In this document: in pieces, positions 1,406 through 64,000 of the stretch
Numbering within the stretch: position 1 is the stretch's first letter
How the letters are laid out: each line of letters begins with the position of its first letter
NCBI GenBank assembly: GCA_965216635.1
Contig: OZ244188.1
Location: 219,205-283,204 of the forward strand
Direction: 5' to 3'
DNA: 64,000 nucleotides
Source of the DNA: a bacterium
GTDB taxonomy: Bacteria; SAR324; XYD2-FULL-50-16; G965216635
Made by a program: the position numbers and the translations under genes
Notes under the pieces: generated by a model
Database searches by the model: none
What the model was told of the DNA's origin: nothing
What the model saw: only the letters and a program-made list of their open reading frames with translations

Positions 1406-1534
1406 AGATAGACCTTTGAATTTGCCAAATAGAACAAAACTAGCTGCGACGGCTAGCCAAATGGTTAGAACAGGAGCGAAAAAAACTTTCGCTCCTGGTC
1501 TAGCTTTCCTATAATGCTAAAGTTCAAAGGTCTC
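1406..1534. mobile_element. MITE-like intergenic repeat (family tagacctttgaatt / ggctagccaaatggttagaacagg modules)
   Basis: Shares the gacctttgaatttgccaaatagaacaaaactagctg...ggctagccaaatggttagaacagg module with 10990-11060 and 56861-56940; ends in ttcaaaggtct. Confidence 0.6.
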
Positions 1535-1713
1535 AACAGTATTGTCAAAAATACGCGCAGCTACAAAGTTATTCAGATTCTATCTCTAATTAAAATTGCA
1601 ACTGCACCTTGCCTCACACTTATCCTGGAATTTCCTTTCTTGTGTTTGAAATTTTATCAAATTATCTCAAAACCGCTAGAAAGCTAATTCAACAAATTGT
1701 AGGATAGTTACTA

Positions 1714-2766
1714 TCAATTATATCTATAGGGTCTTCCCGCTTTTTGCATATCAGAGTTATATTTTTTGAAGATATTAACGACCTTAGCCTTCGTTTTTGA
1801 CTCTGCTGCTATTTTGTCCCAAAACTTAACAGCTGCCTTTTCCACTCTAGCCCATTCGCTATCAGATATAGTTGTTAGTTTGAGTTTTTTACCATAAACT
1901 CTGAGAGAAGCTTCGCCTCCCCAATACCACCATTGCCTATAATAGTGTGAACTATCCATAGTAAGCTGCAGAAGCTCTTTCAAGTGAGCAGGTAATTTGT
2001 TATACTGCTTCATATTCGCAAAAAACGAACCCGCCCAAGCACCAGAAATATTGTTGGTGAGAAAATATTTCGTAACATCTGCCCAACCTACAGTATAGTC
2101 TTCTGTTATCCCAGACCACGCAATACCATCTAGTTCTCCAGTTTGAACAGCAACCTCAATATCTTCCCAAGGCAATGTAACAGGCACTACTCCAAACTGT
2201 TTAAGAAACCTTCCCGCTGTTGGAAATGTAAAGACTCTTAATCCTTTTAAATCAGACAGTTTACGGATAGGTTTCTTAGTTGCAAAATGACAAGGGTCCC
2301 AAGCACCTGCTGACAAATGTTTTACTCCGAGTTTTGAATATTCTGCATCCCAAATCTTATTCAATCCATATTGATTAAATAATACAGGAACATCCAGAGA
2401 GTACCTACTAGCAAAAGGGAAATAGCCTCCAAAAACAGTAACCTCAGTGGGAGAAGCCATAGAATCATCATCCGATTGCACTGCGTCTATTGTGCCTTTT
2501 TGCATTGCTCTGAAAAGCTCACTTGTAGGAACTAATTGATCAGAAAAATACAATTCTATTTTCATTTCACCCTTTGCAACTTTATTAAAACTATCAATTG
2601 CCGGTTTGATTACATGTTTTGCTAAGGCTGGTCCTGCATAGGTCTGCATTCTCCAGCGAATCTCCTTTTTAGCGTGAACTACAGGGGCTTTTGTTATCAA
2701 AGCAGCAGCCCCTACACCAGCTATTCCAGCTCCTTTGATGAATTTACGTCTAGTTGTTGTATTCAT
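1714..2766 (-). CDS. dctP: TRAP transporter periplasmic solute-binding protein (DctP family)
   Basis: 364-aa track ORF (1714..2808) with overall DctP-like pattern. N-terminus has a twin-arginine motif TRRKFIKGAGIAGVGAAA, so the true start is probably MNTTT at 2766. Lies downstream of the dctQM pair on the same strand. Confidence 0.75.
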   Translation of the reverse strand: MNTTTRRKFIKGAGIAGVGAAALITKAPVVHAKKEIRWRMQTYAGPALAKHVIKPAIDSFNKVAKGEMKIELYFSDQLVPTSELFRAMQKGTIDAVQSDDDSMASPTEVTVFGGYFPFASRYSLDVPVLFNQYGLNKIWDAEYSKLGVKHLSAGAWDPCHFATKKPIRKLSDLKGLRVFTFPTAGRFLKQFGVVPVTLPWEDIEVAVQTGELDGIAWSGITEDYTVGWADVTKYFLTNNISGAWAGSFFANMKQYNKLPAHLKELLQLTMDSSHYYRQWWYWGGEASLRVYGKKLKLTTISDSEWARVEKAAVKFWDKIAAESKTKAKVVNIFKKYNSDMQKAGRPYRYN

Positions 2767-2775
2767 AATTAATCT

Positions 2776-3172
2776 TGAGACCTTTGAATTAGCGTTCTGT
2801 TTAGCCAAAACAAGCTTATTGCTTCCAACCTATACGGGCTTTAGCAAAAGAGCCACTGGTATGACCATTTGGCTCTTTTGCAGTCTATATTGTGTTAGCT
2901 TTAAGTTTTGTGGTGTTTTTTGCTACGCCGTTAAAAAAAAAATTTAACTCTTGAAATATCGTAGTGCCACAATAATGGCACCAGGTACACTACAAAACTT
3001 GCGTTATGTGCTCTAAATAAGGCAAAAAAGAATGTAAAAGAGCCAGTGGATCTTCTACTGCAACCCTTATTTTGTGTTAAGAAATAAGAGAGTATTCCTG
3101 CAAGCTAAATTTTTTTTTTGCACTTTTCTAACCATTTGGCTAGCCGTCACATAACACTAATTCAAAGCTCTC
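2776..3172. mobile_element. Composite MITE-like repeat (about 400 bp) between dctP and dctM
   Basis: Begins tgagacctttgaattagcgttctgtttagcc and ends ggctagccgtcacataacactaattcaaagctctc, an inverted-end structure. Internal modules (gcaaaagagccactgg, ttaactcttgaaata, attcctgcaagctaaa) recur at 11100-11250, 14780-14860, 28960-29030 and 57040-57110. Confidence 0.7.
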
Positions 3173-3295
3173 GCCTTTAGTTAAGTTTAAAATTAAGCAA
3201 ACAATTATTAATTATTCGCTGTACTATAAAAACATAATCTGTTACCCTTAAAGATCTCTTTTTTTTTAAAAAATATTTTAACAGCTAACTAACTT

Positions 3296-7571: not shown

Positions 7572-8672
7572 ATGATCACAAAACCCCCACTACTAAAATT
7601 CTTAAAAGAAATACAACACCATTTAGGCAATATGTTCGGTTATCCTGCCGCTCAAGATTTTAACTACGAAGAATTGCTTCCGTTTTTTCGCCACCCAATC
7701 AATAACATTGGTGATCCTTTTATTAAAGGCACCGCCAAAGATAATTGTCACCATTTAGAAAGAGAGGTATTAGGATTTTGGGCAAAATTGCTAAGAGCCC
7801 CCAAAAATAATTGGTGGGGTTACGTGACTAATGGAGGAACTGAAGGCAATCTGTATGGTCTTTGGTTGGCGAGAGAATGCTATCCTAAGGGAATTGTTTA
7901 TTACTCCGAAGATACGCACTATAGCATTGATAAAAATTTGCATTTTTTGAAGATGCAGCAGTGCCGCATTCCTTCCCAAAAAAATGGAGAGATAGACTAT
8001 AAAAAATTGCAAAAAACTTTAGCTAAAAATAGAAAAAAGCCCGCAATTATTTTTGCAAACATTGGAACTACAATGACAGAAGCAAAAGATGATATAGGAA
8101 AAATTCAGGAGATACTAAAAGATTTGATTATTTCTGATTACTATATTCACTGTGATTCAGCAATGAGCGGAGCCATTTCCCCTTTTTTAAAACCCAAACC
8201 GAATTTTGATTTTGCAGACGGGGCAGATAGTATTGTAATTAGCGGACACAAATTTATTGGCTCGCCTATCCCCTGTGGAATAGCCATAGTTCTCAAAAAA
8301 CATAAAAATCGCATCGCAGAATCCATTCCTTATATTGGCACAGTAGATACTACCATCAGCGGTTCTCGTAGCGGGCTAACTTCTCTTATTCTTTGGTATG
8401 CAATGAAGACACAATCCAAAAAAGGAATGGCTGCAAGAGTGCAGAAATCTTTGGATTTAGCGGGTTATGCAAAAACAAAATTAGTAGAAATGGGAGTGCA
8501 AGCGTGGAGAAATGAAAATGCTATCACTGTGGTATTTCCTGCAGCCAAAAAAGAGCTAAAAGAAAAATGGCAACTCGCCACAGCCAATAAAATCTCACAT
8601 ATTATCGTTATGCCTCACCTCACGAAAAAAGATATAGACAATTTTCTCGCAGATTATAAAAAAATTTTTTAG
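7572..8672 (+). CDS. hdc: Pyridoxal-dependent histidine decarboxylase (group II decarboxylase, Gram-negative Hdc type)
   Basis: WGYVTNGGTEGN, YYSEDTHYS, NGEIDY, IIFANIGTT, SGHKFIGSPIPCGIAIV (PLP Lys), SGSRSG and AWRNENAITVVFP track the Morganella/Klebsiella Hdc family essentially block by block; 366 aa. Confidence 0.8.
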   Translation: MITKPPLLKFLKEIQHHLGNMFGYPAAQDFNYEELLPFFRHPINNIGDPFIKGTAKDNCHHLEREVLGFWAKLLRAPKNNWWGYVTNGGTEGNLYGLWLARECYPKGIVYYSEDTHYSIDKNLHFLKMQQCRIPSQKNGEIDYKKLQKTLAKNRKKPAIIFANIGTTMTEAKDDIGKIQEILKDLIISDYYIHCDSAMSGAISPFLKPKPNFDFADGADSIVISGHKFIGSPIPCGIAIVLKKHKNRIAESIPYIGTVDTTISGSRSGLTSLILWYAMKTQSKKGMAARVQKSLDLAGYAKTKLVEMGVQAWRNENAITVVFPAAKKELKEKWQLATANKISHIIVMPHLTKKDIDNFLADYKKIF

Positions 8673-8768
8673 CTCGTAGGAATACTGAAGAGCATTTCTT
8701 CACAAATGGCAAGAGACAAATTTTTTTTGCCTTGCCTAGCCGTCACATAACGCAAATTCAAAGGTCTA
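8670..8768. mobile_element. Partial MITE-like repeat overlapping the hdc stop
   Basis: ttttttagctcgtaggaatactgaag ... ttgccttgcctagccgtcacataacgcaaattcaaaggtcta. Confidence 0.6.
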
Positions 8769-10873: not shown

Positions 10874-10981
10874 TAATGAGACCAGTAGAAATGAGACCAG
10901 TAAAAATGAGACTGTTGAATTAGTGTGATGCTAGGCACAAGCAAAAAATTTTCTCAATTTGGCAATAGTTTGGAGAAAACA

Positions 10982-11256
10982 CTAATTCAAAAGTCTTAAA
11001 TAGACCTTTGAATTTCGCTGATGTGACGGCTAGCCAAATGGTTAGAACAGGTGCGAAAAATTTTTTTAGCTCGTAGGAATACTGAAGTATTTCAAGAGTT
11101 AAAAAAATTTTTCAATGGCGTAGTAAAAAACACTACGAACCTTAAAGCTAACACAATATAGACTGCAAAAGAGCCACTGGCTCTTTTGCTAAAGCCCGTA
11201 TAGAGTGAAAGCAACAAGCTTGTTTTGGCTAAACAGAATGCAAATTCAAAAGTCTA
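10982..11256. mobile_element. Composite MITE-like repeat (about 275 bp)
   Basis: Starts aattcaaaagtcttaaatagacctttgaatttcgctg...ggctagccaaatggttagaacaggtgcg and ends gcaacaagcttgttttggctaaacagaatgcaaattcaaaagtctat. Confidence 0.7.
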
Positions 11257-11268
11257 TTAAAATTATTT

Positions 11269-12063
11269 ATGAAAAAAACAATAATACTTCTTTTTGTTGG
11301 TTGTCTTTTGAGTTTGACTGATCTTTTGGCACAGGAGAATTTTGAAAATTGTTTTGCTCTAAAAAGGATAAGAGCTAAAGCTGGCGGAGCTAGCGCTTAT
11401 GAAGCTGTAGAAATTGCAGAAACAATTTGTTATAGAAAATTCTACCCTGATAAAAAAAGAATGGTTGCTAGTAAAAAACATGCTTTAAAAGAAAATTCTG
11501 ATAAGGATACAATTCAAGAAACAAGCAAAAAAGAAAACAATAATAACTGGGTGGTTGCTACTCAACTCAGAGTCCATTGGGAACTGCAAGATGTTAAAAC
11601 TCTAGTTTCTGATACTCGCTCAGCAAAAAAAATAATCACAAATGAAGAAACACCTATAGCTAAAATAACAGGCAACAGTGATAATCTAAATCTTAGATTT
11701 GCTGGAAAAAATAGCGACCTTATTCTCAACTACTCCAAAGATGGCAAACAGAAAATCATCACTTCTACTTCTCGTGAAATAGGAAAATGGAGTTTAGGAG
11801 GCTCTCTAACAATAGATAAAGATTCTGCAAACTCAAACGCTAATATTAGTGATTTTGGAAAAATTCATCTAAAACACCGCAGCGGACTTCGTTTGAATTT
11901 TAATAGAACCAATGTTTTGAAAGATGTTAATGGTAGTAGTTCTGTAAATAGTGGTGAAATCGGCTTTACCACTAAAAATAAAAAATACAACAGCACTTTA
12001 GACGGAAGCCTTTTATTTAACGATGGATTCTCAACTAGAATTCAAATGTACCAAAGTTTTTAA
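11269..12063 (+). CDS. Secreted hypothetical protein, paralog of the N-terminal domain of 9425..10873
   Basis: Signal peptide ...LLAQ, then a conserved CF..R.KA....A.E......C pattern shared with the 482-aa protein. Confidence 0.5.
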   Translation: MKKTIILLFVGCLLSLTDLLAQENFENCFALKRIRAKAGGASAYEAVEIAETICYRKFYPDKKRMVASKKHALKENSDKDTIQETSKKENNNNWVVATQLRVHWELQDVKTLVSDTRSAKKIITNEETPIAKITGNSDNLNLRFAGKNSDLILNYSKDGKQKIITSTSREIGKWSLGGSLTIDKDSANSNANISDFGKIHLKHRSGLRLNFNRTNVLKDVNGSSSVNSGEIGFTTKNKKYNSTLDGSLLFNDGFSTRIQMYQSF

Positions 12064-12250: not shown

Positions 12251-12461
12251 TTTAAGTTCTAAGTGCAACTTTTTACACTAAAGCGTTTGCGGTAACATTT
12301 ATTCTTTTTTAAAGACCACATATTCAACAGAATTATGAAAAAAAAATTATTATTTAATTACCTTTTTTTGTATTTACCTTTTTTCTTCTGTTAATCTTTT
12401 AGCTCAAAAAAATAACTTTGGTGGTGTATTAAAGCTGAAAGAATAAAAGCAAAAAACTTTT

Positions 12462-12506
12462 CTAGCCTTGCCTGTCCGTCACAGATAAGCAAATTCAAAA
12501 GTCTAT
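12462..12506. mobile_element. MITE-like repeat fragment (right-end module)
   Basis: tctagccttgcctgtccgtcacagataagcaaattcaaaagtctat. Confidence 0.55.
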
Positions 12507-13466: not shown

Positions 13467-14762
13467 ATGAAAAAAAAATACAATATTTTTTTGGATACTT
13501 TAGGTTGTCGTCTCAATTTTTCAGAAACATTTGTGATTGCAGGCAGTTTTGAAGCATTAGGTCATCGGGTGGTGCAGACTGTTGAAAAAGCGGATCTTTG
13601 TGTTCTTAATAGCTGCACTGTAACAGCCCAAAGTGATGCAAAGTGCAGACAGAAAATTCGCCTTTTTCAAAAAAGAAATCCCCGAGCTTGGCTCGCTGTG
13701 ATTGGTTGCTATTCACAAATGGACGCTAAAAAAATCCAAAAAATGGGAGTGGATATTATTTTGGGAAACCAAGAAAAAATGCAATTAGCAAATTATTTTG
13801 GAATGTTTTTAAAAACCAAATCTCCCATTCTCAATGTGCGGAAAATTTCTAAAAAACCTTTTGTCTTACCAGAGACAAAACGGGTTTCGTTACAAACTAG
13901 GGCTAGTTTAAAAATTCAAGATGGTTGTGATTTTTGCTGTGCTTTTTGTATTATTCCTTTTGCAAGGGGTAGAGCCAGACCGCGTTTGTTTGCCGATATT
14001 ATAAAAGAGGCTCGCAGTTTAGCAAAACAGGGTTATCAAGAATTGGTTTTAACGGGGGTAAATATTGGCACTTACCAAGAGCAGGGTTTTTGTTTTATGG
14101 ATATTTTAGAAGCATTGGAATCCATTGAGTCTCTGCGAAGGATTAGAATTAGTTCCATAGAACCTACTACTATAGGAACAGAAATTTTTTCTTTAATGAA
14201 AGACGAGCAAAGCAAGTTAGTGCCTTTTTTGCACTTACCTTTGCAATCAGCTTCTAATAGAGTCTTAAAGGATATGCGAAGAAAATATTCCTTTGAAGAC
14301 TACCAAAATTTTATTCAGCAGGCTTATAACGAAGTTCCAGATATTTGCTTGGGAACAGATATTATTGTGGGATTTCCTACAGAAAATGAGGCAGAATTTG
14401 AAGAGAACTATCAAAACCTACAACAAGCGCCTTTGCACTTTTACCATGTTTTTCCTTTTTCTGCTCGCAAAAAAACAAGAGCCTATAATTTGGTAGAACA
14501 TCAATCAGCAGAGATAATCCAAAAAAGAGCTAGTATCGTTCGGAATTTGAGCCAAGAAAAAAGAAAATCTTTTTATCAAACACAGTTAGGAAAAATTAAA
14601 AAGGTTTTATTTGAGGTATGCAAAGAAGACAATGTTTGGTTTGGGTATACCGATAATTATGTTCGTGTAAAAACACAGGAAAGGAGCATACAAAAAAACT
14701 TTATTGCTTCTGTTAAAATTCAAGCTGTAGATAGTATGCTTGCTGAAGCTATTCTAGTATAG
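13467..14762 (+). CDS. Radical-SAM methylthiotransferase, MtaB/MiaB family (tRNA modification)
   Basis: N-terminal MTTase domain (LGCRLNFSE) and radical-SAM cluster motif CDFCCAFCIIP; 431 aa. Confidence 0.75.
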   Translation: MKKKYNIFLDTLGCRLNFSETFVIAGSFEALGHRVVQTVEKADLCVLNSCTVTAQSDAKCRQKIRLFQKRNPRAWLAVIGCYSQMDAKKIQKMGVDIILGNQEKMQLANYFGMFLKTKSPILNVRKISKKPFVLPETKRVSLQTRASLKIQDGCDFCCAFCIIPFARGRARPRLFADIIKEARSLAKQGYQELVLTGVNIGTYQEQGFCFMDILEALESIESLRRIRISSIEPTTIGTEIFSLMKDEQSKLVPFLHLPLQSASNRVLKDMRRKYSFEDYQNFIQQAYNEVPDICLGTDIIVGFPTENEAEFEENYQNLQQAPLHFYHVFPFSARKKTRAYNLVEHQSAEIIQKRASIVRNLSQEKRKSFYQTQLGKIKKVLFEVCKEDNVWFGYTDNYVRVKTQERSIQKNFIASVKIQAVDSMLAEAILV

Positions 14763-14968
14763 ACTTTTGCATTTGCATTCTGTTTAGCCTATGCAGCGTT
14801 GAAAATTTTTTTTAACTCTTGAAATACTTCAGTATTCCAGCGAGCTAAAAAAAATTTTCGCACCTGTTCTAACCATTTGGCTAGCCGTCACATAACGCAA
14901 ATTCAAAGGTCTATAATAGACTGTCGTATTTGCATTCTGTTTAGCCAATGCAGTGTTAAAAAAAATTT
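14761..14968. mobile_element. Composite MITE-like repeat between mtaB-like gene and hemH
   Basis: agacttttgcatttgcattctgtttagcctatgcagcgttgaaaa...accatttggctagccgtcacataacgcaaattcaaaggtctat, plus a second half-copy. Its read-through translation (SRHITQIQRS) produced the artificial N-terminal extension of track ORF 14877. Confidence 0.7.
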
Positions 14969-14969
14969 A

Positions 14970-16080: not shown

Positions 16081-16118
16081 TGAGACCTTTGAATTAGAAT
16101 GCTAATTCAAAAGTCTAT
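16081..16118. mobile_element. Minimal 38-bp MITE hairpin (both inverted ends only)
   Basis: tgagacctttgaatt-agaatgct-aattcaaaagtctat. Confidence 0.6.
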
Positions 16119-16231
16119 ATAAAAAAGGAGCAGAAAAAATAAAAAAAACTGCCAATAGCCACTAAGTACTATTGACAAGAAGGTGTTTTTCTGTAATTAT
16201 TCTTTATAAAGGATAAGCAGAAAAAATAAAA

Positions 16232-16371
16232 AACTTTTGAATTAGCGTTCTGTTTAGCCTATGCAGCGTTAAAAAAAAATTTTAACTCTTGAAATATTAC
16301 ATATATTCCTGCGAGCTAAAATTTTTTTTTGCCTTGCCTAGCCGTCACATAACGCAAATTCAAAGGTCTAT
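16232..16371. mobile_element. MITE-like repeat (about 140 bp)
   Basis: aacttttgaattagcgttctgtttagcctatgcagcgtt...ttgccttgcctagccgtcacataacgcaaattcaaaggtctat; nearly identical to 28938-29080. Confidence 0.75.
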
Positions 16372-16459: not shown

Positions 16460-17857
16460 ATGAAAAACATAAATTCCCAAGTTTTAAGGAAAACTTCAGC
16501 TGTTCGTTTTACTCTGGTTCGTTTCGTTTTGGCAGCTATTCTTATTCCCGCTATTCTTATAGGAAGTGCCTTTACTTTTGGAGGCAGTAATCTGCAAGCC
16601 CAAGCGAATGGTGGCAGCAAGCAGGGATTTTTCGCTGGTTTTGTCTATTTGAGTGGTTTTAAAGTGGATAGCACAAAAAAGGTCACCACAAATATCACAA
16701 CCACTGCAAACGCTATAACAGGCTATAGAATCACTGGCTCTTCAGACGCAACTTCTATAGTCGCCAACGTAGATGCCGTTTTTAATACTCAGATTAATGG
16801 TATTATTCATTATAACGGAGTAAAAGCTCTTTTGAAAGAGAGTTGTGAAACAGGAGTCACATCGGTTACAGCGTATGGTAGAACTTATAGTTATGGCAGC
16901 ATTGATCTGGATTCTTTTGATGCAGGCACAAGTAAAGGTGAAGGAACTAGTGTGACCACCACAAGTGATGGATCTGGCACGATAGTGCACAGTAATCAGA
17001 ATCTATTTCCTACGGGAACAAGAAATGATGGAGATGACACTAATTATTGTTTCACTTACTTTTTCGGTGATCTTTCCTCCGATAGAACCTCTATTACTCT
17101 TTCTGCTTATAAGGGGGTATCTGACGATTCAGAACCAACTACAACTGCTGTAATTGTGGATCCAACAGCAATCACTAGTAGTAGCAAGAGCGATAAAATC
17201 TCAGGTATTGGTCTGCAATTCGGCTTTAGGTGGGAAAAATGGAGAGCCTCCTTGACTCACTTTACTGGCAAGGGGGGAGATAACGAGCTCGCCAATACGC
17301 TAGTTATGGCGGATTATTTTGTAAACGAGGGTCTTTTTGTAGGAGGCGGTCTAGCGAGTATGAAGCTTACCAATGGCTCCGCCAGCGGCTCCGCCACAAG
17401 TCCAGCGCTTAGAGTCGGCTATAAGCAGAAATTAACCCCCAACCTATCGCTTAATTTTGGCTTGACTAAGTATATCTCGGGAGTTTCTCTAAAAAACAGT
17501 GTTACTACTAATAATACTACTACTGCTAATGCTAATGCTAATACTACTCCCATTGTGTTACGCTCTTTTGAAGAAACACAGACTCCTGACCGCGGCGATT
17601 CAGCAGTGGTTGGTGTTTCCAACATACGATTTGGTACCAGTCAAACTATTACCGCAAGATATTTTGTTGTACCTAGTACTCAAATGTTTGATAGTGATCG
17701 TAGAACACCAGTGACTCAAGTCCGCAGCAGAACTGTATATATAAACGAAATCCAGACTCCAGCAGGATCAGAAACTCAGACAACCACAACTACAGAAACC
17801 GATGCCGAACTCAAAGCACCACTCGTCATCAGCATCTCCTTCCACTTGAGTTTTTAA
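16460..17857 (+). CDS. Outer-membrane beta-barrel family protein with Thr/Ser/Asn-rich variable regions (paralog of 53281..54570)
   Basis: Start moved to MKNINSQ (16460) because the track start 16289 lies inside the MITE. Signal peptide ends NLQAQA. The C-terminal half (GLQFGFRWEKWRASLTHF...LVMADYFVNEGLFVGGGLA...LRVGYKQ) aligns with 53281 ORF. Terminal ...FHLSF. Confidence 0.6.
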   Translation: MKNINSQVLRKTSAVRFTLVRFVLAAILIPAILIGSAFTFGGSNLQAQANGGSKQGFFAGFVYLSGFKVDSTKKVTTNITTTANAITGYRITGSSDATSIVANVDAVFNTQINGIIHYNGVKALLKESCETGVTSVTAYGRTYSYGSIDLDSFDAGTSKGEGTSVTTTSDGSGTIVHSNQNLFPTGTRNDGDDTNYCFTYFFGDLSSDRTSITLSAYKGVSDDSEPTTTAVIVDPTAITSSSKSDKISGIGLQFGFRWEKWRASLTHFTGKGGDNELANTLVMADYFVNEGLFVGGGLASMKLTNGSASGSATSPALRVGYKQKLTPNLSLNFGLTKYISGVSLKNSVTTNNTTTANANANTTPIVLRSFEETQTPDRGDSAVVGVSNIRFGTSQTITARYFVVPSTQMFDSDRRTPVTQVRSRTVYINEIQTPAGSETQTTTTTETDAELKAPLVISISFHLSF

Positions 17858-17944
17858 TGGGAGCAGGGTACTATAAAATTTGCGTTATGTGCTCTAGGCA
17901 AAAAGTCTGTTTTATAAGAGCTACTTTTATTAACTTTTATTAAT

Positions 17945-18577: not shown

Positions 18578-18637
18578 GAATCTTTGAATTAGATATTAAA
18601 CTTTGCATAACGCTAAAGATTTTAATAAAATAGAAAA

Positions 18638-20014: not shown

Positions 20015-20045
20015 TTTTTTGTTTATGATTTAAATATTAAAAAAA

Positions 20046-28937: not shown

Positions 28938-29080
28938 TAGAGACCTTTGAATTAGCGTTCTGTTTAGCCTATGCGTCGTTGAAAAAAATTTTTAACTCTT
29001 GAAATACTTGAGTATTCCTGCGAGCTAAATTTTTTTTTTGCCTTGCCTAGCCGTCACATAACGCAAATTCAAAGGTCTAT
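28938..29080. mobile_element. MITE-like repeat (about 143 bp) between actC and actD
   Basis: tagagacctttgaattagcgttctgtttagcctatgcgtcgttgaaaaa...ttgccttgcctagccgtcacataacgcaaattcaaaggtctat; clear inverted termini. Confidence 0.8.
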
Positions 29081-32926: not shown

Positions 32927-34810
32927 ATGAAAATTTTGAAAAAGAAAAAAATCAATTTTTCTAGAAGAGTTTATCTTGTTCTCGCCTGTTTCTTTCTTGG
33001 TTCTTACTGTTTCTCTGGTTCGGGGGTTATTTTCGCTCAAAACTTTGAGTTAGTAGATAAAGAAACTTATGAAGAATATTACAAAAAACCGCTCTATGTT
33101 CCAGATGTGCGTTTTTCTGGAGAATACCAATATAATGCTTTAAATTTTGAAGATTTTGCTGGTAATAGGCATATATCTTCTTGGCAGGGTTTTGAATTGC
33201 GTCTACGAAGTGAGGTCAAAGAAAATTTGAAGCTTAATCTTTTATTTACCAACGAGCCTTACGAATGGGGCGAAACGAAGGAGGTTTATCGCTCTCGTGG
33301 GAACGGCAATAGGCAAAATCAAGCAAGACAGAATATCGGAATTTCTTTGCGGGAGTTTTACTTGGAATACAATAGCAATCCTCACGCTATTTTTCGTGCG
33401 GGTCGCCAGCCTATCAGCTTGGGTGATAAATTAGGCTTGATTTATGAGGGGGAAGCAGATGCTTTTACTATTAGCTGTCGTATTGGCACTTGGTGTTTGG
33501 AAGCAGGGCAGGCTAATTTTGGTGGTGGGATAAAAGCCTACGAATCGTATGGAATTACTACTTGGCTAGAGTTTTTTTATCCCGTCTATGAATCGGAGGA
33601 GACAATAGAAAACTATTGGATTGACAACGAGGAGAAGAAAAGAAAACATTCCCGATTGGATGTAGATATCTATCGTATAGACGACAAGCAAGACAGAGTC
33701 GCTGTGACTTCTTATGGGGGTAGAACCCATAACCCTTATCAAAATTCTGTAGGGGATATAGTCTATAGTCCTGATCATTTGCAAGTTGGAGTAATAGATG
33801 ATTTTACTCTACAAACTAGAAGTTTTGATTTTAATGGAGATGAGACTATTGACGCTACTAATGATATTTTAGGAAGAGATGTGAAAGCTGGAATAGAAAA
33901 TTCTATTTTCAGTGAATATGCTACGAGTAGCCCTTTTGATATTAATGGAGATGGTACTTTTGATAATCCCAACAAAGACGAATTCCTATTTCTAATAAGA
34001 CTTCCTGTTTTGAGAATAGATGCTATAGATAGCTATAGATCCATCAGTGTAGTTAAAAGTAATAACAAAGATATTAGCGCTGACTTTGCCTTTGACTTAC
34101 CCTTAAATCTAGAACGTGTTTATTTTGATAGGGAGCAACAAACTTTTGGTATTAATATTAAATGGTATGCCGGCAATTTTGGTTTGCTTTTTCATACTGC
34201 TCAAAATTTTGGTAAAAAAGCCTACCACTATGGAGGAGGTGATAGCGATGCTGTGCCTGGTGCAGAAAGACAGACATTAGGAAGATTTTACCGTTTGGAA
34301 TGGCAACAGCTAGCTGGCAGTTCTACCCAATTTGGGGCAGTAGCTTTTATGGCATCAGGTGGGAAAGCTAATTCTAACGATGACTTTCCTTGGAGCAATA
34401 ACGATGGTTATTTTGAATGGAATAAAGGCACTTATGGAGATGCTCTGTTATATTTTGGAGGAAAAGAAAGCTATCTAGGACAGGCTCATTCGGTGAATAA
34501 TTTAGTTTATAGTAGTTTTTATTACAAATACCACGGTGCCGAACAAAATATCGGAGGCATTACGCGACTATTTAGCTTTAGTAGGAACGAACCTGTCTAT
34601 AACGCAGCAGGTAAAAAAGTATCCTACATAGGTTGGGAGTGGGATTTAGAATTTTATAAATATATCTCTGATTCTTTAAAAATAAGTCTAGAGGCTGCTT
34701 ATTTCAAACCTGGAAATGCTTACAGTCCAGATGATTCTACAAAACCCGGAGTAGATCCCATTCCTTCTAATATTACGCAGTATAATTTTAAGATAGAGTA
34801 TAAATTCTAA
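32927..34810 (+). CDS. Putative outer-membrane beta-barrel protein/porin
   Basis: Start moved to MKILKKKK (32927), giving signal peptide ...VIFAQ. About 628 aa rich in Y/G/N/D. Ends YNFKIEYKF (C-terminal aromatic OMP signature). Confidence 0.5.
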   Translation: MKILKKKKINFSRRVYLVLACFFLGSYCFSGSGVIFAQNFELVDKETYEEYYKKPLYVPDVRFSGEYQYNALNFEDFAGNRHISSWQGFELRLRSEVKENLKLNLLFTNEPYEWGETKEVYRSRGNGNRQNQARQNIGISLREFYLEYNSNPHAIFRAGRQPISLGDKLGLIYEGEADAFTISCRIGTWCLEAGQANFGGGIKAYESYGITTWLEFFYPVYESEETIENYWIDNEEKKRKHSRLDVDIYRIDDKQDRVAVTSYGGRTHNPYQNSVGDIVYSPDHLQVGVIDDFTLQTRSFDFNGDETIDATNDILGRDVKAGIENSIFSEYATSSPFDINGDGTFDNPNKDEFLFLIRLPVLRIDAIDSYRSISVVKSNNKDISADFAFDLPLNLERVYFDREQQTFGINIKWYAGNFGLLFHTAQNFGKKAYHYGGGDSDAVPGAERQTLGRFYRLEWQQLAGSSTQFGAVAFMASGGKANSNDDFPWSNNDGYFEWNKGTYGDALLYFGGKESYLGQAHSVNNLVYSSFYYKYHGAEQNIGGITRLFSFSRNEPVYNAAGKKVSYIGWEWDLEFYKYISDSLKISLEAAYFKPGNAYSPDDSTKPGVDPIPSNITQYNFKIEYKF

Positions 34811-34895
34811 ATTAGACATTAGCGTTTTGCTTAGCCTATGCTTCGTTAATTTTTTTTTATCCCTTGCCTAGCCATCACATAACACTAATGCAATA
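34806..34895. mobile_element. Degenerate MITE-like copy
   Basis: aaattagacattagcgttttgcttagcctatgcttcgtt...cccttgcctagccatcacataacactaatgcaata. Confidence 0.5.
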
Positions 34896-35036
34896 AGCCT
34901 CTTTTAAATTAGACATTATTCGGAATTTAGTTTTTTAAAATTTTTTTGCAGTGTCTAGTTTGTCCTAGCTAGTTTGTACTATCTGGCCAATTCAATAAAT
35001 CTCTTTTAAACGAAATATAAGCTAAACAGAATACTA

Positions 35037-42601: not shown

Positions 42602-42664
42602 TAGACCTTTGAATTTGCGTTATGTTTAGCCTTGCCGTCGCATCAGCGAAATTCAAAGGTCTAT
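42602..42664. mobile_element. Short MITE (63 bp)
   Basis: tagacctttgaatttgcgttatgtttagccttgccgtcgcatcagcgaaattcaaaggtctat. Confidence 0.8.
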
Positions 42665-49710: not shown

Positions 49711-49721
49711 CCAGTTATTTT

Positions 49722-53129: not shown

Positions 53130-53275
53130 GTGTTATTATTCTTTGTAAAGTTTTATAAAAATAAAACTGAATAACCTAAATTAACTAAAAAAAAGATTGA
53201 CTATTTTTATTTTTTTAGTTACTCTTTGTAAAGTTTTATAAAAATAAAACTGAATAACCTAAATTAACTATAAAA
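53130..53275. repeat. About 60-bp direct repeat x2 upstream of OMP gene 53281
   Basis: ctttgtaaagttttataaaaataaaactgaataacctaaattaacta at about 53141-53200 and 53222-53275. Confidence 0.7.
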
Positions 53276-53280
53276 AGACT

Positions 53281-54690: not shown

Positions 54691-54770
54691 ATAGACTGTC
54701 GTTTTGTCCTATTTGGCAAATAGGACAAAACTAGCTGTTTAGCCTAAACAGAACGCAAATTCAAAAGTCT
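54691..54770. mobile_element. MITE-like repeat
   Basis: atagactgtcgttttgtcctatttggcaaataggacaaaactagctgtttagcctaaacagaacgcaaattcaaaagtct. Confidence 0.65.
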
Positions 54771-54787
54771 TATTTTTATTTACTGTA

Positions 54788-56860: not shown

Positions 56861-57167
56861 TAGACCTTTGAATTTGCCAAATAGAACAAAACTAGCTGTG
56901 ATGGCTAGCCAAATGGTTATAACAGGTGCGAAAATTTACAAAAAAGCGGAGCATACACGGTAGTATGTGAGTGTTTTTTGTAAATTTTTAATGGCGTAGT
57001 GCCACAATATAACGGGATCAGGGCACTACAAAACTTAAAGCTAGCACAATATAGACTGCAAAAGAGCCACTAACAAAAGAGCCAGTGGCTCTTTTGCTAA
57101 AGCCTGTATTGGCGTAAAAGCAATAAGCTTGTTTTGGCTAAACTAGACAAGCAAATTCAAAAGTCTA
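56861..57167. mobile_element. Composite MITE-like repeat (about 300 bp) between rpmF and plsX
   Basis: tagacctttgaatttgccaaatagaacaaaactagctgtgatggctagccaaatggtt...gcaataagcttgttttggctaaactagacaagcaaattcaaaagtcta. Confidence 0.75.
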
Positions 57168-57177
57168 ACTAATTTGA

Positions 57178-58167
57178 ATGATAGGTTTAGATGTCATGGG
57201 GGGAGATTTTTCTCCAGAAGTCCCTATTAGAGCTGCGATCCAAACAGTGCAAAAGCATAAAATCCCTATTCTTTTAATAGGCGATAAGTCTTTGATTGAG
57301 GAGCAGTTGAAAATACAAAATTACAAAGGAAATTTGTTATCTGTTTTTCATACAGAGGATTTTGTAAGTATGGAAGATTCAGTTTTACACGCTCTTAGAA
57401 AAAAAGAATCTTCTTTATACAAGGCTTTTGCGTTGCACAAAGAAAAAGAAATACAAGGCGTTGTTAGTGCGGGAAATTCTGCTGCATTTTTGGCGATTGG
57501 CAAATGCATTCTCAAATCTATAGAAGGGATTGATAGACCTTGCATTAGTGCGGTTATGCCTCATCTAAAGGGGAGATTAGTCTTTTTGGATGCTGGAGCT
57601 AATACAGATTGTGAAGCAAAACATCTATTGCAATTTTCTATTTTAGGCTCTATCTATGCTACTGAGTTTTTAAATATTTCCAAACCTAAGGTTGCTCTTT
57701 TGAATATTGGATCAGAAAAAGGCAAAGGGAATAGGGTGGTAAAAGAAGCTTATGATCTTTTAGAAAAGGCTCCTATTCATTTTATTGGTAATATAGAGGG
57801 AAAAATTTTTTTTAGCGGAGAAGCGGATGTGGTGGTAGCAGATGGTTTTGTTGGCAATGTTTTGTTGAAATCTGTAGAAGGATCCGCTAGTTTTATGAAG
57901 AATTTAGCTAAAAAACATTTCACAGAATCCTTGCTGAGTAAATTGGGAAGTGTTTTTCTTATGAGAAGTATAAAAAAAATCCAAAAAACTATAGATTATG
58001 CGGAATATGGCGGAGCTCCTCTTTTGGGGTTGAATGGAGTAGCTATAGTTTGCCACGGTGCTTCTCGGGACGATGCTATTGTCTACGCTTTGCGTTTAGC
58101 TCAAAAGAGTGCTGATTGTGGGTATGTTCGCCAAGTTACGGAGAAAATTTTTAATCTTAATTTTTAA
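57178..58167 (+). CDS. plsX: Phosphate acyltransferase PlsX
   Basis: MIGLDVMGGDFSPEV N-terminus and FLDAGAN/VADGFVGN motifs. Confidence 0.85.
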   Translation: MIGLDVMGGDFSPEVPIRAAIQTVQKHKIPILLIGDKSLIEEQLKIQNYKGNLLSVFHTEDFVSMEDSVLHALRKKESSLYKAFALHKEKEIQGVVSAGNSAAFLAIGKCILKSIEGIDRPCISAVMPHLKGRLVFLDAGANTDCEAKHLLQFSILGSIYATEFLNISKPKVALLNIGSEKGKGNRVVKEAYDLLEKAPIHFIGNIEGKIFFSGEADVVVADGFVGNVLLKSVEGSASFMKNLAKKHFTESLLSKLGSVFLMRSIKKIQKTIDYAEYGGAPLLGLNGVAIVCHGASRDDAIVYALRLAQKSADCGYVRQVTEKIFNLNF

Positions 58168-58183
58168 TTACTTTAAAAAATCT

Positions 58184-59107
58184 ATGTCTATTGCGTTTCT
58201 TTTTGCGGGGCAAGGATCTCAAAAAGTGGGTATGGGAAAATCTTTTGCCGATGATTCTCTTTGCCAAGAATCTTTTCAGATAGCAAATCAAGCATTAGGC
58301 TATGATTTACAAAAAATTTGCTGGGAGGGACCTGAAGATAAACTGACTCTTTCTGAAAACGCACAGCCTGCTATTTTAACAGTAGCTATTATTGCCTACC
58401 GAATATTTACCCAAATGCATAAAATTCAACCTAGTCTTATGGCTGGACATTCTTTAGGTGAATATAGTGCTTTAGTTGCTTCTGAAGTTTTAGATTTAGC
58501 AGACGCAGTGAAATTAGTGCATAAAAGAGGACAGTTGATGCAAGAGGCAGTACCCGCTGGAGTAGGAGCAATGGCCGCAGTGTTGGGAAAAAGCAACGAA
58601 GAAATTAAGTTACTTTGCTCACAAATAAGCAGCGCAGAAAAAATGGTTTCGGCTGCGAATTTTAATTGCAATGGACAGGTTGTGGTCTCAGGACATAAAG
58701 AAGCAGTTTTAGAGCTTTTAGAACAGGTGAAAGGTAAGATGCTTCAAGTCAGTGCCCCTTTCCATTGCCCTTTAATGAGTCCAGTAAAAGAAAAATTTGC
58801 TCCGTTTTTAAAGGAAGTTACTTTTAAGGACGCTAAAACAGCTATAGTCAATAATGTTCGTGGTGACATTCAAGAAAAAGCAGATAGTTTTCAAGAATCT
58901 CTGTTGAGTCAAATAGATAGTGCGGTTCTCTGGGAAAGTGGTATCCAAAAAATGCTTCAAAAAGGAATAAAAAATTTTTTAGAATTTGGAGAAGGCAAAG
59001 TTCTTACAAATCTCTTGAAAAGAATAGATAAAGAGGCTATGTTTGTGAATGTAAATTCTTTAGAGGCAATAAACGAATATAGACTGTCGTATTTGCATTC
59101 TGTTTAG
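58184..59107 (+). CDS. fabD: Malonyl-CoA:ACP transacylase
   Basis: Start moved to MSIAFLFAGQGSQKVGM (58184); GHSLGEYSA active-site Ser motif. Confidence 0.85.
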   Translation: MSIAFLFAGQGSQKVGMGKSFADDSLCQESFQIANQALGYDLQKICWEGPEDKLTLSENAQPAILTVAIIAYRIFTQMHKIQPSLMAGHSLGEYSALVASEVLDLADAVKLVHKRGQLMQEAVPAGVGAMAAVLGKSNEEIKLLCSQISSAEKMVSAANFNCNGQVVVSGHKEAVLELLEQVKGKMLQVSAPFHCPLMSPVKEKFAPFLKEVTFKDAKTAIVNNVRGDIQEKADSFQESLLSQIDSAVLWESGIQKMLQKGIKNFLEFGEGKVLTNLLKRIDKEAMFVNVNSLEAINEYRLSYLHSV

Positions 59108-59280
59108 CCAAAACAAGCTTATTGCTTTAAATAGGTTATGGGCTATAGTAAAAGCTCCACAAAGCAAAAAGAGTAAAAATTTAGCGTTAAGCAAAAACGA
59201 ACTGCCAAAAGGCACTTTGGCAATAATCTGTCTGAAGTTTAAAACAAAAACGTCACATTGGCGAAATTCAAAGTTCTAGG
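59079..59280. mobile_element. Two MITE-end fragments between fabD and fabG
   Basis: atagactgtcgtatttgcattctgtttagccaaaacaagcttattgc (59079-59130) and cgtcacattggcgaaattcaaagttctagg (59254-59280). Confidence 0.6.
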
Positions 59281-62327: not shown

Positions 62328-62399
62328 TTCAACAGACGCGAGAATGTCTCTAAAAGCCTTATAATATTGATTGAAATTATAAGGTAAGTAATATTTTTA

Positions 62400-63122
62400 T
62401 TAAAATAATTTTGGGAGTGTATCCCTTGTGTGATTTTTACACAACAATCCAGCTGAGTAGTTTTGTTTTAATAAACTACGATCAATTATGCTGATAAAAT
62501 TTTGTTGGGAATTTAATGCATTATCAAATAAATTAAGTTGAAGTAATGATACCAACAAAGCACAAGTTCTAGCTTGGCAAGCTATGGACTTTTTAGGGTT
62601 AAATTCAATATCTGTAAAACCTTTAAATTTTAATAGTTTTTCTAGATAATCTTGATGAGGGTGAAGGGCAGTGAGGTACAACCAATCATAAAATGCAGTC
62701 TCTGGTTTCAATGACCATTTTTGTCCAAAATAATCAAATCCAATAAGTTTTCCTGATTCTTTAAGTATAAGGTCTTGTCTTGCTGATCTACTATCTTTTT
62801 CATAAATATCTGTATAAGGTCCTCCTTGTTCAAATACTTTACTCCCTTGATAAGCAGATTCAATGCTTATATATCCTCTACTAGTTTTTATTTTTAGATT
62901 GAATGCACTCAATCGCTTTCCGAGCAATACTTCAGATTTTGTAGAAGCCTCTAATAATGGCAACAAGCCTTTTTTTTTTGCTGCTTTATGTAGGGCTGCA
63001 ATATTTTTTTTCTTTTGTTCAACTGCAAAGCCAGGGTTCCATTCAAACTCAACTTGCAGTTCTTCAACTAGATTTTCTGTTTTACCAACAGGAATAAATA
63101 CGGGTCGTTTAGCCATTTTCAA
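62400..63122 (-). CDS. NADAR (YbiA-like, DUF1768) domain protein, candidate antitoxin for the adjacent DarT-like toxin
   Basis: LSAFNLKIKTSRGYISIESAYQGSKVF parallels the NADAR core FSNF....G.....SEHYFQAQKF; 240 aa; start overlaps the toxin gene end by 14 nt. Confidence 0.5.
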   Translation of the reverse strand: MKMAKRPVFIPVGKTENLVEELQVEFEWNPGFAVEQKKKNIAALHKAAKKKGLLPLLEASTKSEVLLGKRLSAFNLKIKTSRGYISIESAYQGSKVFEQGGPYTDIYEKDSRSARQDLILKESGKLIGFDYFGQKWSLKPETAFYDWLYLTALHPHQDYLEKLLKFKGFTDIEFNPKKSIACQARTCALLVSLLQLNLFDNALNSQQNFISIIDRSLLKQNYSAGLLCKNHTRDTLPKLF

Positions 63123-63633
63123 TACTTATAATCATATTTAATGGAATACAATCAGGGACAAGAATTTCTGATTTTACTGCTAATCTACGTCGCTTTTTAA
63201 TCTCTGGGTCATTCCAATCCATACCTTTGTACTTGAAAATGACATCAAAATCAATTCTTTTTTCTGCCTCCTCTGATGTAAAAAGAATAGCATCTGATTT
63301 ATTGGCTACCTCAGAGCAAAATTGTATCCCTTCTTGTAAAAGTATAGAAGATTTAATTTTCAACCACTTTGGATTTTTTATCCTTTGCTTTGATTTTACT
63401 GTATAGAGCATTGGATGTTCCTTGATAAATGTTAAATGCACAAATTTATGTAGATTTTTTTGTTTATCTGCATCATGACTCCATTTATTTCCTCCAAAAA
63501 CAGGGTGAATTTGTTGCCTTTCAATTTCTTCTAAAGAAAATATACCTTTATGTTTCTTTATTAACGCAATATTTGATTCTTCCGTAAAATGCCAGACGCT
63601 ATTAATTATATATTTTTTAATTATTTCTTTCAT
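63109..63633 (-). CDS. DarT-like (DUF4433) ADP-ribosyltransferase toxin
   Basis: N-terminal VWHFTEESNIALI (H-x-T NAD-binding element) and C-terminal RRRLAVKSEILVPDCIPL (ARTT-loop Glu, compare DarT ...AEFLV...LPL); 174 aa. Confidence 0.5.
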   Translation of the reverse strand: MKEIIKKYIINSVWHFTEESNIALIKKHKGIFSLEEIERQQIHPVFGGNKWSHDADKQKNLHKFVHLTFIKEHPMLYTVKSKQRIKNPKWLKIKSSILLQEGIQFCSEVANKSDAILFTSEEAEKRIDFDVIFKYKGMDWNDPEIKKRRRLAVKSEILVPDCIPLNMIISIENG

Positions 63634-63860
63634 TCTAGGAGTGCATTTTTATTTTTATCTATTCCAGAGAGATTTTGCGCTAATGTTTTGTTTAGCACCA
63701 ATGTATTAAATAATTTTACTTTAAAAAGTTATTAAACTATTGATTTAGCTGAATAAAATAATAAAAAACTGTGTGCTAAACGGCTAGTTTTTAAGGAAAA
63801 TAGTTTATTTTCTGGTTGTTTTCTAAACTTGTAAATCACTAATGTAATGCTTTTGTATTG

Positions 63861-64000
63861 TATAGACTTTTGAATTTGCATTCTGTTTAGCCTATGCAAG
63901 CTTATTGCTTTCACCCTATACAGGCTTTAGCAAAAGAGCCATTGGCTCTTTTGCAGTCTATCTTGTGTTAGCTTTAAGTTTTGTAATGCATTGCACTACG
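63861..64000. mobile_element. MITE-like repeat at window edge (truncated)
   Basis: tatagacttttgaatttgcattctgtttagcctatgcaagcttattgc...gcaaaagagccattggctcttttgcagtctat. Confidence 0.7.

Follow-up and report, generated by a model that had tools for sequence, protein, structure and literature searches.

Among the bacterial repeat systems closest to the family reported here are the Correia or NEMIS elements of Neisseria, which are MITEs of about 104-157 bp with terminal inverted repeats of ~26 bp (PMC3184786, PMC10969869), the bcr1 elements of the Bacillus cereus group, which are ~155 bp long, have 5-bp AT-rich direct repeats, show compensatory changes and have no identified transposase (PMC3184786), and QMITE1 and QMITE2 of Coxiella burnetii, which form a size gradient from ~39 to 400 bp in one genome and affect the ends of ORFs (PMC10969869). 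REP sequences are GC-rich stem-loops of 20-40 bp with a GTAG or CGTC tag, by which two large super-families are defined (PMC3733652). Features of prokaryotic MITEs are used below as defined in PMC10969869 and PMC3184786.

The present family was found in a window (the whole stretch of DNA analysed, 64 kb in length) from a low-GC bacterium that has not been cultured; the nearest relatives with names are MAGs carrying the labels SAR324 or Proteobacteria. The family is a MITE of the Correia or bcr1 style and not a REP/BIME; its sequence is undescribed, though bacterial repeats of this kind are well known and it is an ordinary case among them. It has in common with Correia/NEMIS that the elements are short and non-coding, have ~26-bp terminal inverted repeats and a whole-length hairpin, are dense in intergenic DNA, include internally deleted size variants, and are inserted by or between co-transcribed genes, sometimes altering gene ends; "Correia-type", as the first-pass annotation had put it, is a fair analogy for how the family works. 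Correia elements have a TA duplication at their flanks, whereas the recurring duplication of the window family is 5 bp, its host is unrelated, and its end sequence is presumably unrelated to the Correia terminal inverted repeat.

The likeness to bcr1 is one of style alone and comprises a length of ~150 bp, a low-GC host, 5-bp AT-rich direct repeats, positions that are not conserved between related genomes, a stable structure in which base changes compensate each other, and the lack of an identified transposase; the window host is not a Bacillus, its LeuRS being at most 61% identical to those of Bacillaceae. With QMITE1/QMITE2 the family (36-396 bp) shares a size gradient from degeneration or deletion of a longer form, and affected ORF ends; QMITE2 has a GTAG REP targeted by IS1111, of which no counterpart was seen in the window family, and the sequences and hosts are unrelated. 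REP, BIME and REPIN elements are, like the present copies, extragenic, palindromic and clustered at gene ends and inside operons. The resemblance to REP/BIME proposed at first pass is not supported: measured against the REP features, the units are AT-rich, mostly 60-400 bp long and up to 396 bp, their ends are TAGAC or GAGAC with no GTAG or CGTC tag, and 5-bp target-site duplications are present.

Extent and coding capacity of the family

In the 64-kb window the end motif TAGACCTTTGAATTNGCG has 15 occurrences at no more than two mismatches, both strands counted, against 0.00 expected from shuffles; the shared inverted ends and multiple intergenic copies reported by the first-pass annotation thus belong to a real family. 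Profile searches of the window delimited 18 copies, 36-396 bp in size and spread across 62 kb at 15 intergenic sites; nhmmer, run with single copies as queries or with the family profile, gave 15-16 loci, and repeat finding returned many overlapping families at the positions where copies had been placed before. The earlier figure of at least 20 copies was right in that the family is multi-copy and too high in number: 59079 and 59254, listed separately, are the two ends of a single copy, a degenerate partial copy ends at 10982, and the sequence at 17870 matches no more than the extra segment of copy D, and that weakly (E 0.002). The family accounts for 3.9% of the window and for ~22% of the non-coding DNA in it. 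Copies are AT-rich, occur in both orientations, each with different flanks, and are 71-93% identical to each other in pairwise comparison; neighbouring copies nearly touch at 10997/11001 and 14913/14917. No match to the repeat was found in Rfam or in phage, plasmid or metagenome collections.

No frame is open throughout the 256-bp reference copy, copy D or copy F, and the concatenated six-frame translation of the elements gave no protein match with E<=1 in a search of 5.8 billion sequences. As in MITEs, the copies (36-396 bp) are shorter than 500 bp and carry no transposase gene. Neither the window (~53 ORFs scanned) nor eight relative loci yielded a transposase or a full-length autonomous element bearing these ends.

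Structure of the copies

The terminal inverted repeats are imperfect, 18-30 bp long, and read TAGACYTTTGAATTWGCR, inverted at the opposite end; when the two terminal 30-mers of each of the ten complete window copies are compared, 70-88% of the 24-30 alignable positions agree. All copies are colinear with copy E (11001..11256, minus strand, 256 bp), the reference, which has every segment found in the other copies, and they differ from it by internal deletion, truncation and one nested partial copy. The four strings quoted at first pass as optional modules are all segments of copy E and stand as such, but their free option or shuffling does not: "modular" overstates a pattern made up of deletion variants of a single 256-bp sequence and one nested copy.

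Copies A (14760..14913, plus strand, 154 bp; profile E 5e-40), B (16230..16370, plus strand, 141 bp; profile E 2e-35; left terminus mutated to AAAAC) and C (28938..29079, plus strand, 142 bp) are of similar length. Copy G (1409..1534, minus strand, 126 bp; profile E 1e-12) has both ends, an extra GCCAAATAGAACAAAACTAGCTG segment and a GC-rich central hairpin; the copy folds at -53.7 kcal/mol with z -8.6. The longest is the composite copy D (2777..3172, plus strand, 396 bp), in which reference positions 2-169 are followed by an inverted partial copy (about 2959-3088) and by reference 164-255; copy F (56861..57167, minus strand, 307 bp; profile E 1e-23) has enlarged inner hairpins, copy J (59080..59278, plus strand, 199 bp; profile E 1e-19) a divergent interior, and copy K (63863..64000, plus strand) is of the long type, cut by the window end and 89% identical to reference 1-138. 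Copy H (42602..42663, plus strand) had been described as a 63-bp copy made of two ends and a core; it does consist of reference positions 1-30 and 219-256, with a size of 62 bp. Shorter still is copy P (16082..16117, no strand assigned), 36 bp of two inverted ends alone, whose hairpin has -14.4 kcal/mol and z -7.5. Copy I (54692..54771, minus strand) is 80 bp long.

The remaining copies are partial or degenerate: copy L (8657..8768, plus strand, 112 bp; profile E 2.5e-13) is a right-half remnant, copy N (12450..12505, plus strand, ~56 bp; profile E 2e-4) a right-end remnant, copy M (10908..10997, minus strand; profile E 0.001) a degenerate partial copy with the terminus AATTCAAAAGTCTT, 3 nt from copy E, copy O (14917..14969, plus strand; profile E 1e-10) a left half only, with the variant end TAGACTGTCGTATTTGC, and copy R (34806..34899, plus strand; profile E 2e-6) a degenerate short copy. 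Copy Q (17855..17921, no strand assigned; E 0.0024) is a weak fragment like the extra inner segment of copy D only; it is absent from the family-profile results, and its membership of the family is doubtful. The range of 36-396 bp would have arisen from a ~256-bp form by internal deletions, probably through slippage between its inner hairpins, by truncation, and by one nested insertion.

The two halves of a copy are complementary over nearly its whole length, making each copy one long end-to-end hairpin. Folding of short and ~143-bp copies, a check proposed at first pass, gave a single long hairpin in every copy tested, with z-scores of -3.5 to -8.6 against dinucleotide shuffles (seven copies, the six longer ones on both strands); by these predictions either strand, as DNA or RNA, can form one long hairpin. 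The inner hairpin GCAAAAGAGCCAGTGGCTCTTTTGC scores as terminator-like, and neither promoter-like nor terminator-like sites are enriched in the region scanned. Changes on both sides that keep the arms paired amount to 10 pairs, against 3.6 in shuffles (0 of 500 shuffles reach 10), in a count made on five sequences from two species and lying in part in A/T runs whose alignment is arbitrary. Such paired changes hint that the hairpin itself is under selection, something a purely selfish transposon would not need.

Flanking direct repeats and an empty site

Direct repeats of 5 bp flank three of the 11 complete copies exactly (E, TTAAA/TTAAA; C, TAAAT/TAAAT, the left one including the actC stop codon; F, ACTAA/ACTAA) and three more with four of five positions matching (A, TAGTA/TAATA; H, TACTA/TAATA; J, GAATA/GGATA). 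The other five complete copies have no convincing flanking repeat, as is expected for old copies, so that support for target duplication is statistical and not universal. The permutation probability of at least three exact 5-bp repeats is 0.006, read with the provisos that AT-rich flanks inflate chance matches (1.8% exact in a cross-pair control) and that the boundary of copy C, TAGAGACC, was chosen after its repeat had been seen; at other repeat lengths from 2 to 9 bp there were never more than two exact cases. TA stands immediately outside ~10 of 27 ends; the recurring duplication is nonetheless 5 bp.

Insertion polymorphism, a mark of MITE mobility, was found at one site. Copy C lies between actC (stop 28935) and actD (ATG 29098), where the spacer is 162 nt in the window, 5 nt in the relative L112 and 27 nt in the relative L110; actC of L112 is 88% identical to that of the window at the nucleotide level, and the actD start ATGAATAAAAAATTTTGCGGAGT is identical in both. 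Deleting copy C and one TAAAT restores an actC-actD spacer of 15 nt. Copy C would thus be an insertion into an orthologous site that is empty in L112 and L110, although this is the sole filled/empty comparison, and insertion cannot formally be distinguished from precise loss, which gives the same pattern. In the related species L107 (LeuRS 85% identical at the amino acid level) three copies lie upstream of leuS: one of 145 bp that shares 82-84% identity with copies A, B and C, another at 71-77%, and a third that is partial. Judged by these identities, set beside the 71-93% among window copies, the family predates the split of the window genome and L107.

Gene context and effects on annotation

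Copies are located between converging, diverging and tandem genes, as well as inside operons (actC|actD, dctM|dctP and fabD|fabG), and several lie 0-32 nt from start codons. Copy D is located between dctM and dctP, its left end 10 nt from the dctP ATG (2766), copy E ends 12 nt before an ATG at 11269, copy F ends 10 nt before the plsX ATG at 57178, copy H lies 32 nt upstream of the GmrSD start within the thyA defence island, and copy K lies upstream of a DarT/NADAR pair. Copy I is found between the converging 3' ends of ORF 53281-54570 and a DAO oxidoreductase gene, and copy R directly 3' of the stop of ORF 32840-34810. That copies abut start or stop codons, as the first-pass annotation noted, is borne out by copy A, in which the first TAG serves as stop codon for the radical-SAM gene 13467-14762, and by copy O, whose last base directly precedes the ferrochelatase (hemH) ATG at 14970. 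The stop codon of ORF 7572-8672 falls within copy L, and the acyltransferase (fabD-like) gene 58109-59107 takes its last nine codons and its stop from the left arm of copy J.

No copy lies within a gene body, element-derived sequence being limited to the last few codons of two or three genes. The Rickettsia palindromic element (RPE) type was considered and rejected, as in-frame genic insertion was not found. In the left arm every one of the three frames meets a stop codon within 28 nt, and in the right arm two of the three do, so an insertion at the extreme 3' end of a gene usually alters only a few codons. The false N-terminal extensions from read-through translation noted earlier are present, in three ORFs (14877, 16289 and 2808 on the minus strand) where two had been counted; the mechanical ORF 16289 begins inside copy B, and the first in-frame ATG beyond that copy, at 16460, is likely its real start. 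Since the family misleads gene callers in this way, and also through element-derived C-termini or stops in two or three genes, it should be masked when the window genome and its relatives are annotated.

Proposed mobilisation and alternative explanations

The best explanation, to which we give a probability of roughly 0.7, is a family of hairpin-forming MITEs inserted in AT-rich 5-bp targets and mobilised in trans. The description "MITE-like, intergenic" given at first pass holds for small non-coding elements with inverted ends, 5-bp repeats, a hairpin, an empty site and a second species; terminal inverted repeats (about 4-30 bp in MITEs), flanking repeats, multiple dispersed AT-rich intergenic copies and a stable long stem-loop are likewise found. 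A DDE-type transposase encoded elsewhere in the genome would act in trans by binding both ends, and insertion into AT-rich 5-bp targets (TTAAA, TAAAT, ACTAA or TAATA-like) would duplicate the target. Such targets are most frequent in the A/T-rich spacers that surround stop and start codons, and insertions inside genes would presumably be lethal; this target preference and this lethality together could account for copies positioned exactly at gene boundaries, including inside operons.

The minimal copies, at 16082-16117 (36 bp) and 42602-42663 (62 bp), are two inverted 18-nt units in a hairpin, and the copies are strictly extragenic, often adjacent and in both orientations, as would be seen in a REP/REPIN-type system of inverted short palindrome pairs spread by a single-copy RAYT (HUH/Y1) transposase, of the kind known from enterobacterial BIMEs and Pseudomonas REPINs. 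Such a system is improbable here: 5-bp direct repeats, exact or nearly so, flank six of the 11 complete copies, the commonest forms are 140-300 bp long with a structured interior instead of being 20-40 bp GC-rich stem-loops, and a search of the window ORFs found no RAYT. To our knowledge, mobilisation of the IS200/IS605 or RAYT type (HUH, single-strand) makes no target-site duplications. The ends are, moreover, AT-rich TAGAC sequences without the GTAG or CGTC tag of REP sequences (PMC3733652). Duplication confined to this region, or an assembly artefact, is effectively refuted within the window. The evidence from the source genome is this 64-kb window, and some relative contigs of the same ENA sample (L105, L107 and L112) are palindromic chimeras, yet the copies are 71-93% identical rather than identical, they occupy 15 different junctions of unrelated housekeeping genes over 62 kb in both orientations and with different flanks, and homologous copies stand beside a different gene in a different organism (L107).

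Somewhat less improbable than a REP/REPIN system, though still unlikely, is that the hairpins are primarily functional and that selection retains them at gene boundaries, where they could act as mRNA 3'-end stabilisers, RNase III sites, partial terminators or translation attenuators, their MITE-like spread being secondary or ancient. The very stable folds in all copies, the arm pairing kept in diverged copies of two species (10 both-sided changes against 3.6), the placement of several copies inside operons or 0-32 nt from start codons and the terminator-like GCAAAAGAGCCAGTGGCTCTTTTGC inner hairpin agree with such a role. It fits poorly with orientations that run both ways relative to the flanking genes, in every gene context, with the bare 5-27 nt spacer of relatives at actC|actD, with the wide variation in copy length and retained segments, with promoter- and terminator-like sites that are not enriched in the scanned region, and with the lack of an Rfam match; the covariation comes from five sequences, in part from arbitrarily aligned A/T runs. 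A more novel form of the idea has the hairpin selected in its own right, the family being a co-opted set of RNA or DNA hairpins that would set differential expression within operons; instead, or as well, the family would be moved by a kind of transposase so far unconnected with MITEs that have TAGAC ends and 5-bp duplications. This reading draws on the both-sided substitutions across two species, the precise positions within operons and 0-32 nt from start codons, and the presence of almost no spacer DNA in the organism, and we see it as an outside chance.

Under the MITE reading, the window organism is one more lineage on the long list of those with dense MITE families, which leaves the general picture unchanged. 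The copies could serve as insertion-polymorphism markers for strain typing in this uncultured lineage, and where they lie in the respiratory (act), TRAP-transporter and fatty-acid operons they offer natural test cases for the effect of long hairpins on polycistronic mRNAs. A more unusual feature of the region is that defence and toxin-antitoxin cassettes have been inserted in arrays at gene junctions, each bordered by copies of the downstream gene's 5' end.

Repeat family and layout of its copies

The window, which is densely coding with a G+C content of 26-38%, carries genes for a TRAP transporter, an aminotransferase, a ferrochelatase and the alternative-complex-III (act) operon, as well as leuS, folC, yifB, thyA and a plsX-fabD-fabG-fabF cluster. 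The end motif TAGACCTTTGAATTNGCG, reported as repeated in the first-pass annotation, was found 15 times in the window (at most two mismatches, both strands), compared with 0.00 matches expected from dinucleotide shuffles. Repeat finding over the window returned a dozen overlapping direct-repeat families at the positions where this annotation had placed copies, and nhmmer searches, run both with individual copies and with a profile of 13 sequences, gave 15-16 significant loci. Once two very short copies are added, the family totals 18 copies at 15 intergenic sites; these sum to 2.5 kb, which represents 3.9% of the window and approximately 22% of its non-coding DNA, and show pairwise identities of 71-93%.

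The 256-bp copy E (11001-11256, minus strand) was taken as reference, its reverse complement defining the canonical orientation. As determined by blastn, all other copies are colinear with this reference and differ from it by internal deletion or truncation. Copies A (14760-14913), B (16230-16370) and C (28938-29079), of 140-154 bp, join reference positions 1-30 to approximately 142-256, the 62-bp copy H (42602-42663) joins positions 1-30 to 219-256, and the 36-bp copy P (16082-16117) is composed of both ends and nothing else. Two copies are longer than the reference: copy F (56861-57167; 307 bp), in which the inner hairpins are enlarged, and copy D (2777-3172; 396 bp), which includes part of a second copy in inverted orientation. 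The optional modules of the first-pass annotation are thus parts of a single sequence rather than shuffled cassettes.

Terminal repeats, folding and coding capacity

Imperfect inverted repeats of 18-30 bp, of the kind TAGACYTTTGAATT or GAGACTGTTGAATT, are found at both element ends. Folding of the copies, which had been suggested as a check, gave a single long end-to-end hairpin in each copy tested, as RNA from either strand or as DNA, with energies 3.5-8.6 SD below shuffled controls; the 256-bp form has three or four additional inner hairpins. In an alignment of five sequences (A, B, C and two copies from L107, a contig locus of a relative), 87.5% of the alignment cells are paired in the end-to-end hairpin, and 10 of its 52 pairs show changes on both sides, compared with 3.6 +/- 1.5 in shuffles (none of 500 reaching this value) and 0-5 in slid controls. 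Based on these five sequences, with some of the changes lying within A/T runs, conservation of the hairpin structure across copies is suggestive only, and a transposase that has to recognise two identical ends would be just as likely to produce both-sided changes.

No open frame spans the reference, copy D or copy F. The concatenated six-frame translation of the elements had no match at E<=1 among 5.8 billion proteins, which supports their non-coding status; stop codons occur within 28 nt in each frame of the left arm and in two frames of the right arm. Promoter- and terminator-like motifs were not enriched in the region scanned, and an outward promoter at the ends (GGTCTATAAT) was discarded, as the scan found neither enrichment nor a properly spaced -35. 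The inner palindrome GCAAAAGAGCC..GGCTCTTTTGC was also considered as a pair of abutting ISL3-like ends, a reading rejected on the grounds that unique DNA flanks the whole element and not the palindrome.

Gene context and target duplications

Every copy is intergenic, and copies are found in both orientations and between tandem, converging and diverging gene pairs. Their abutment on start and stop codons, already pointed out in the first-pass annotation, is confirmed: a radical-SAM gene (13467-14762) terminates on the first TAG of copy A, copy O (14917-14969) runs up to the ATG of the ferrochelatase gene at 14970, start codons lie 10-32 nt from the ends of copies E, C, F and H, copy J (59080-59278) is the source of the last nine codons and stop of a fabD-like gene, and remnant L (8657-8768) contains the stop of ORF 7572-8672. 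The false N-terminal extensions noticed earlier are also real and affect three mechanical ORFs rather than two, starting at 14877, 16289 and 2808 (minus strand); in-frame ATGs are located just outside the element at 14970, 16460 and 2766, respectively, and the Pfam domains start downstream of these ATGs. Several copies lie within operons, copy C in act, copy D in the TRAP operon and copy J within the plsX-fabD-fabG-fabF cluster.

Start codons throughout the window are preceded by A/T-only spacers having no recognisable Shine-Dalgarno sequence (e.g. 11257-11271, 29080-29100, 57168-57180), and in relatives the spacers between genes measure only 2-27 nt. The gene junctions of this organism seem very compact and Shine-Dalgarno-poor, which makes the tolerated insertions at these junctions more striking.

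The 5-nt flanks are identical in three of the 11 two-ended copies, namely E (TTAAA), C (TAAAT) and F (ACTAA), and match at four of five positions in A, H and J, the latter after a one-base correction of its start. Three or more exact matches were obtained in 0.6% of 100,000 random left/right re-pairings, a value to be read with the AT-richness of the flanks and with the left boundary of copy C (TAGAGACC) having been fixed after inspection. Other duplication lengths from 2 to 9 bp never gave more than two exact cases. TA is often found just outside the element ends, and a TA target duplication in the style of IS630/mariner was therefore weighed; a length of 2 bp gives only two exact cases, compared with three for 5 bp, and the 5-bp duplication is preferred because it alone yields three.

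Distribution in relatives and databases

Eight loci from relatives were compared with the window. The relatives' assemblies in ENA include ERZ26869290, ERZ26693861, ERZ25069278 and ERZ25072278; the LeuRS of the named relatives are only 60-77% identical to that of the window, and the MAGs are labelled SAR324, Proteobacteria or Bdellovibrionales. Loci L105, L107 and L112 (ERZ26869290) are among palindromic chimera contigs, which carry the same genes in mirror image, and for these copy counts need halving and synteny is unreliable.

In L107 (LeuRS 85% identical), the 490 nt of intergenic DNA preceding leuS contain three family members. The first, of 145 bp, shares 82-84% identity with A, B and C and has the ends GAGACTGTTGAATT.../...AATCAACAGTCTC; identity is 71-77% for the second, and the third is a partial copy. 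The other seven loci (approximately 90 kb, partly redundant) contain no family member. The act operon provides a clean comparison of occupied and empty orthologous sites: the window reads actC-TAA-AT-[142-bp copy C]-TAAATTTTACTAAAAAAA-ATG actD, whereas L112 (actC 88% identical at the nucleotide level) reads TAA-AAACA-ATG with the same actD start, and the actC-actD spacer of L110 (ActC 85% identical at the amino acid level) is 27 nt. When copy C and one TAAAT are taken out, a 15-nt spacer of the same kind as that of the relatives is left.

A pattern of 16 specified bases, AGACCTTTGAATTNGCG, which is too short for a specific search, gave only single chance matches in unrelated taxa among those listed from a 596-Gb genome collection. 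Two longer patterns had no match in JGI metagenomes and IMG/VR, by exact search that could miss diverged relatives, and plasmid and phage collections gave none by blastn. Rfam returned two tRNAs and nothing else at gathering threshold, and for the reference copy only sub-threshold noise at E<=1. The end motif retrieved only unrelated primer matches from the full-text literature.

Classification and proposed mechanism

All the features by which two reviews (PMC10969869, PMC3184786) define prokaryotic MITEs are present in the family, except for a cognate transposase, which was sought within the window and is encoded by none of the approximately 53 ORFs scanned (Pfam, NCBIfam). It is real, well supported and ordinary in kind, representing a new MITE-class sequence family, which appears to be undescribed and confined to a narrow clade. 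The first-pass annotation had likened the copies to REP/BIME or Correia-type elements. Membership of REP/BIME is not supported, on account of size, composition, the end tag and the target duplications present here. The Correia comparison holds better, these elements being among the closest analogues in behaviour; bcr1 of the B. cereus group likewise resembles the family in its 5-bp AT-rich duplication and compensatory changes. Neither likeness is based on sequence homology.

We favour, with a probability of about 0.7, a joint mechanism in which a DDE-type transposase encoded elsewhere would mobilise the elements in trans, insertion would occur into AT-rich 5-bp targets, copies would persist only at gene boundaries, and deletion between inner hairpins would generate the size diversity. 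Putative effects of the copies on transcripts, through processing, stabilisation or partial termination, are plausible.

Cassette arrays and other observations

Two arrays of accessory cassettes are located in the window at junctions that are tight in relatives. The yifB-thyA gap, 6 nt in L108, holds a 6.6-kb defence island in the window (38613-47656 from thyA to yifB, minus strand). This island comprises three cassettes: MTase/DpnII-like REase/MTase, GmrSD (PADLOC HEC-06), and SocA_Panacea with a 99-aa ORF partner. All three open with the same 21-mer, TAGACAAACAAAATTTGATTG, which corresponds to thyA codons 34-42 in diverged form, and ahead of each of the last two lies a pseudo-copy of approximately 130 nt of the thyA upstream region and first 33 codons; the genuine thyA comes after the last cassette (repeats at 39335-39482, 40751-40898, 42842-42989 and 46061-46111). 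The island looks like serial integration into the thyA 5' end with restoration of that end.

The act operon (17945-31521) is also interrupted at gene junctions. Between actB and actC, contiguous in L110, 4.3 kb hold three cassettes (UDG-like, SocA_Panacea, DUF7931 and others); each of the two internal cassette boundaries is marked by a duplicate of the initial 45-64 nt of actC, and actC itself directly adjoins the last cassette (repeats at 23907-24009, 25024-25126 and 27570-27633). actA and actB are separated by the gene of an AriA-like AAA_15 ATPase. The operon is uninterrupted in L110 (6243-13774; spacers of 2-27 nt), and in L111 (1-13262), a same-sample strain represented by another metagenome contig, every act junction is occupied by different cassettes (SocA pairs, an MTase pair). 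The act arrangement is hypervariable, integron-like and inside an essential operon. No recombinase genes were found in either island, and the arrays look like an integrase-less, array-forming version of serial site-specific integration in which the target gene regains its 5' end. They may warrant closer attention than the MITEs.

A DarT (ssDNA ADP-ribosyltransferase)/NADAR antitoxin pair of the DarTG toxin-antitoxin/defence system (62400-63633, minus strand) adjoins copy K (63863-64000). The tRNA-Met(CAT) is duplicated in a 152-nt direct repeat (37589-37740 and 37834-37985, minus strand), 95% identical and 245 nt apart. In-frame tandem repeats occur inside ORFs at 53254-53397, 48185-48268, 49692-49793 and 10331-10486: an 18-nt repeat (six times) at the start of an uncharacterised ORF (53281-54570), a 12-nt repeat in a folC-like ORF, a 14-nt repeat spanning the start of a PCMT gene, and a 39-nt repeat (four times) on the opposite strand of an OMP-like ORF (9425-10873). 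These ORFs are possible contingency or variable-surface loci.
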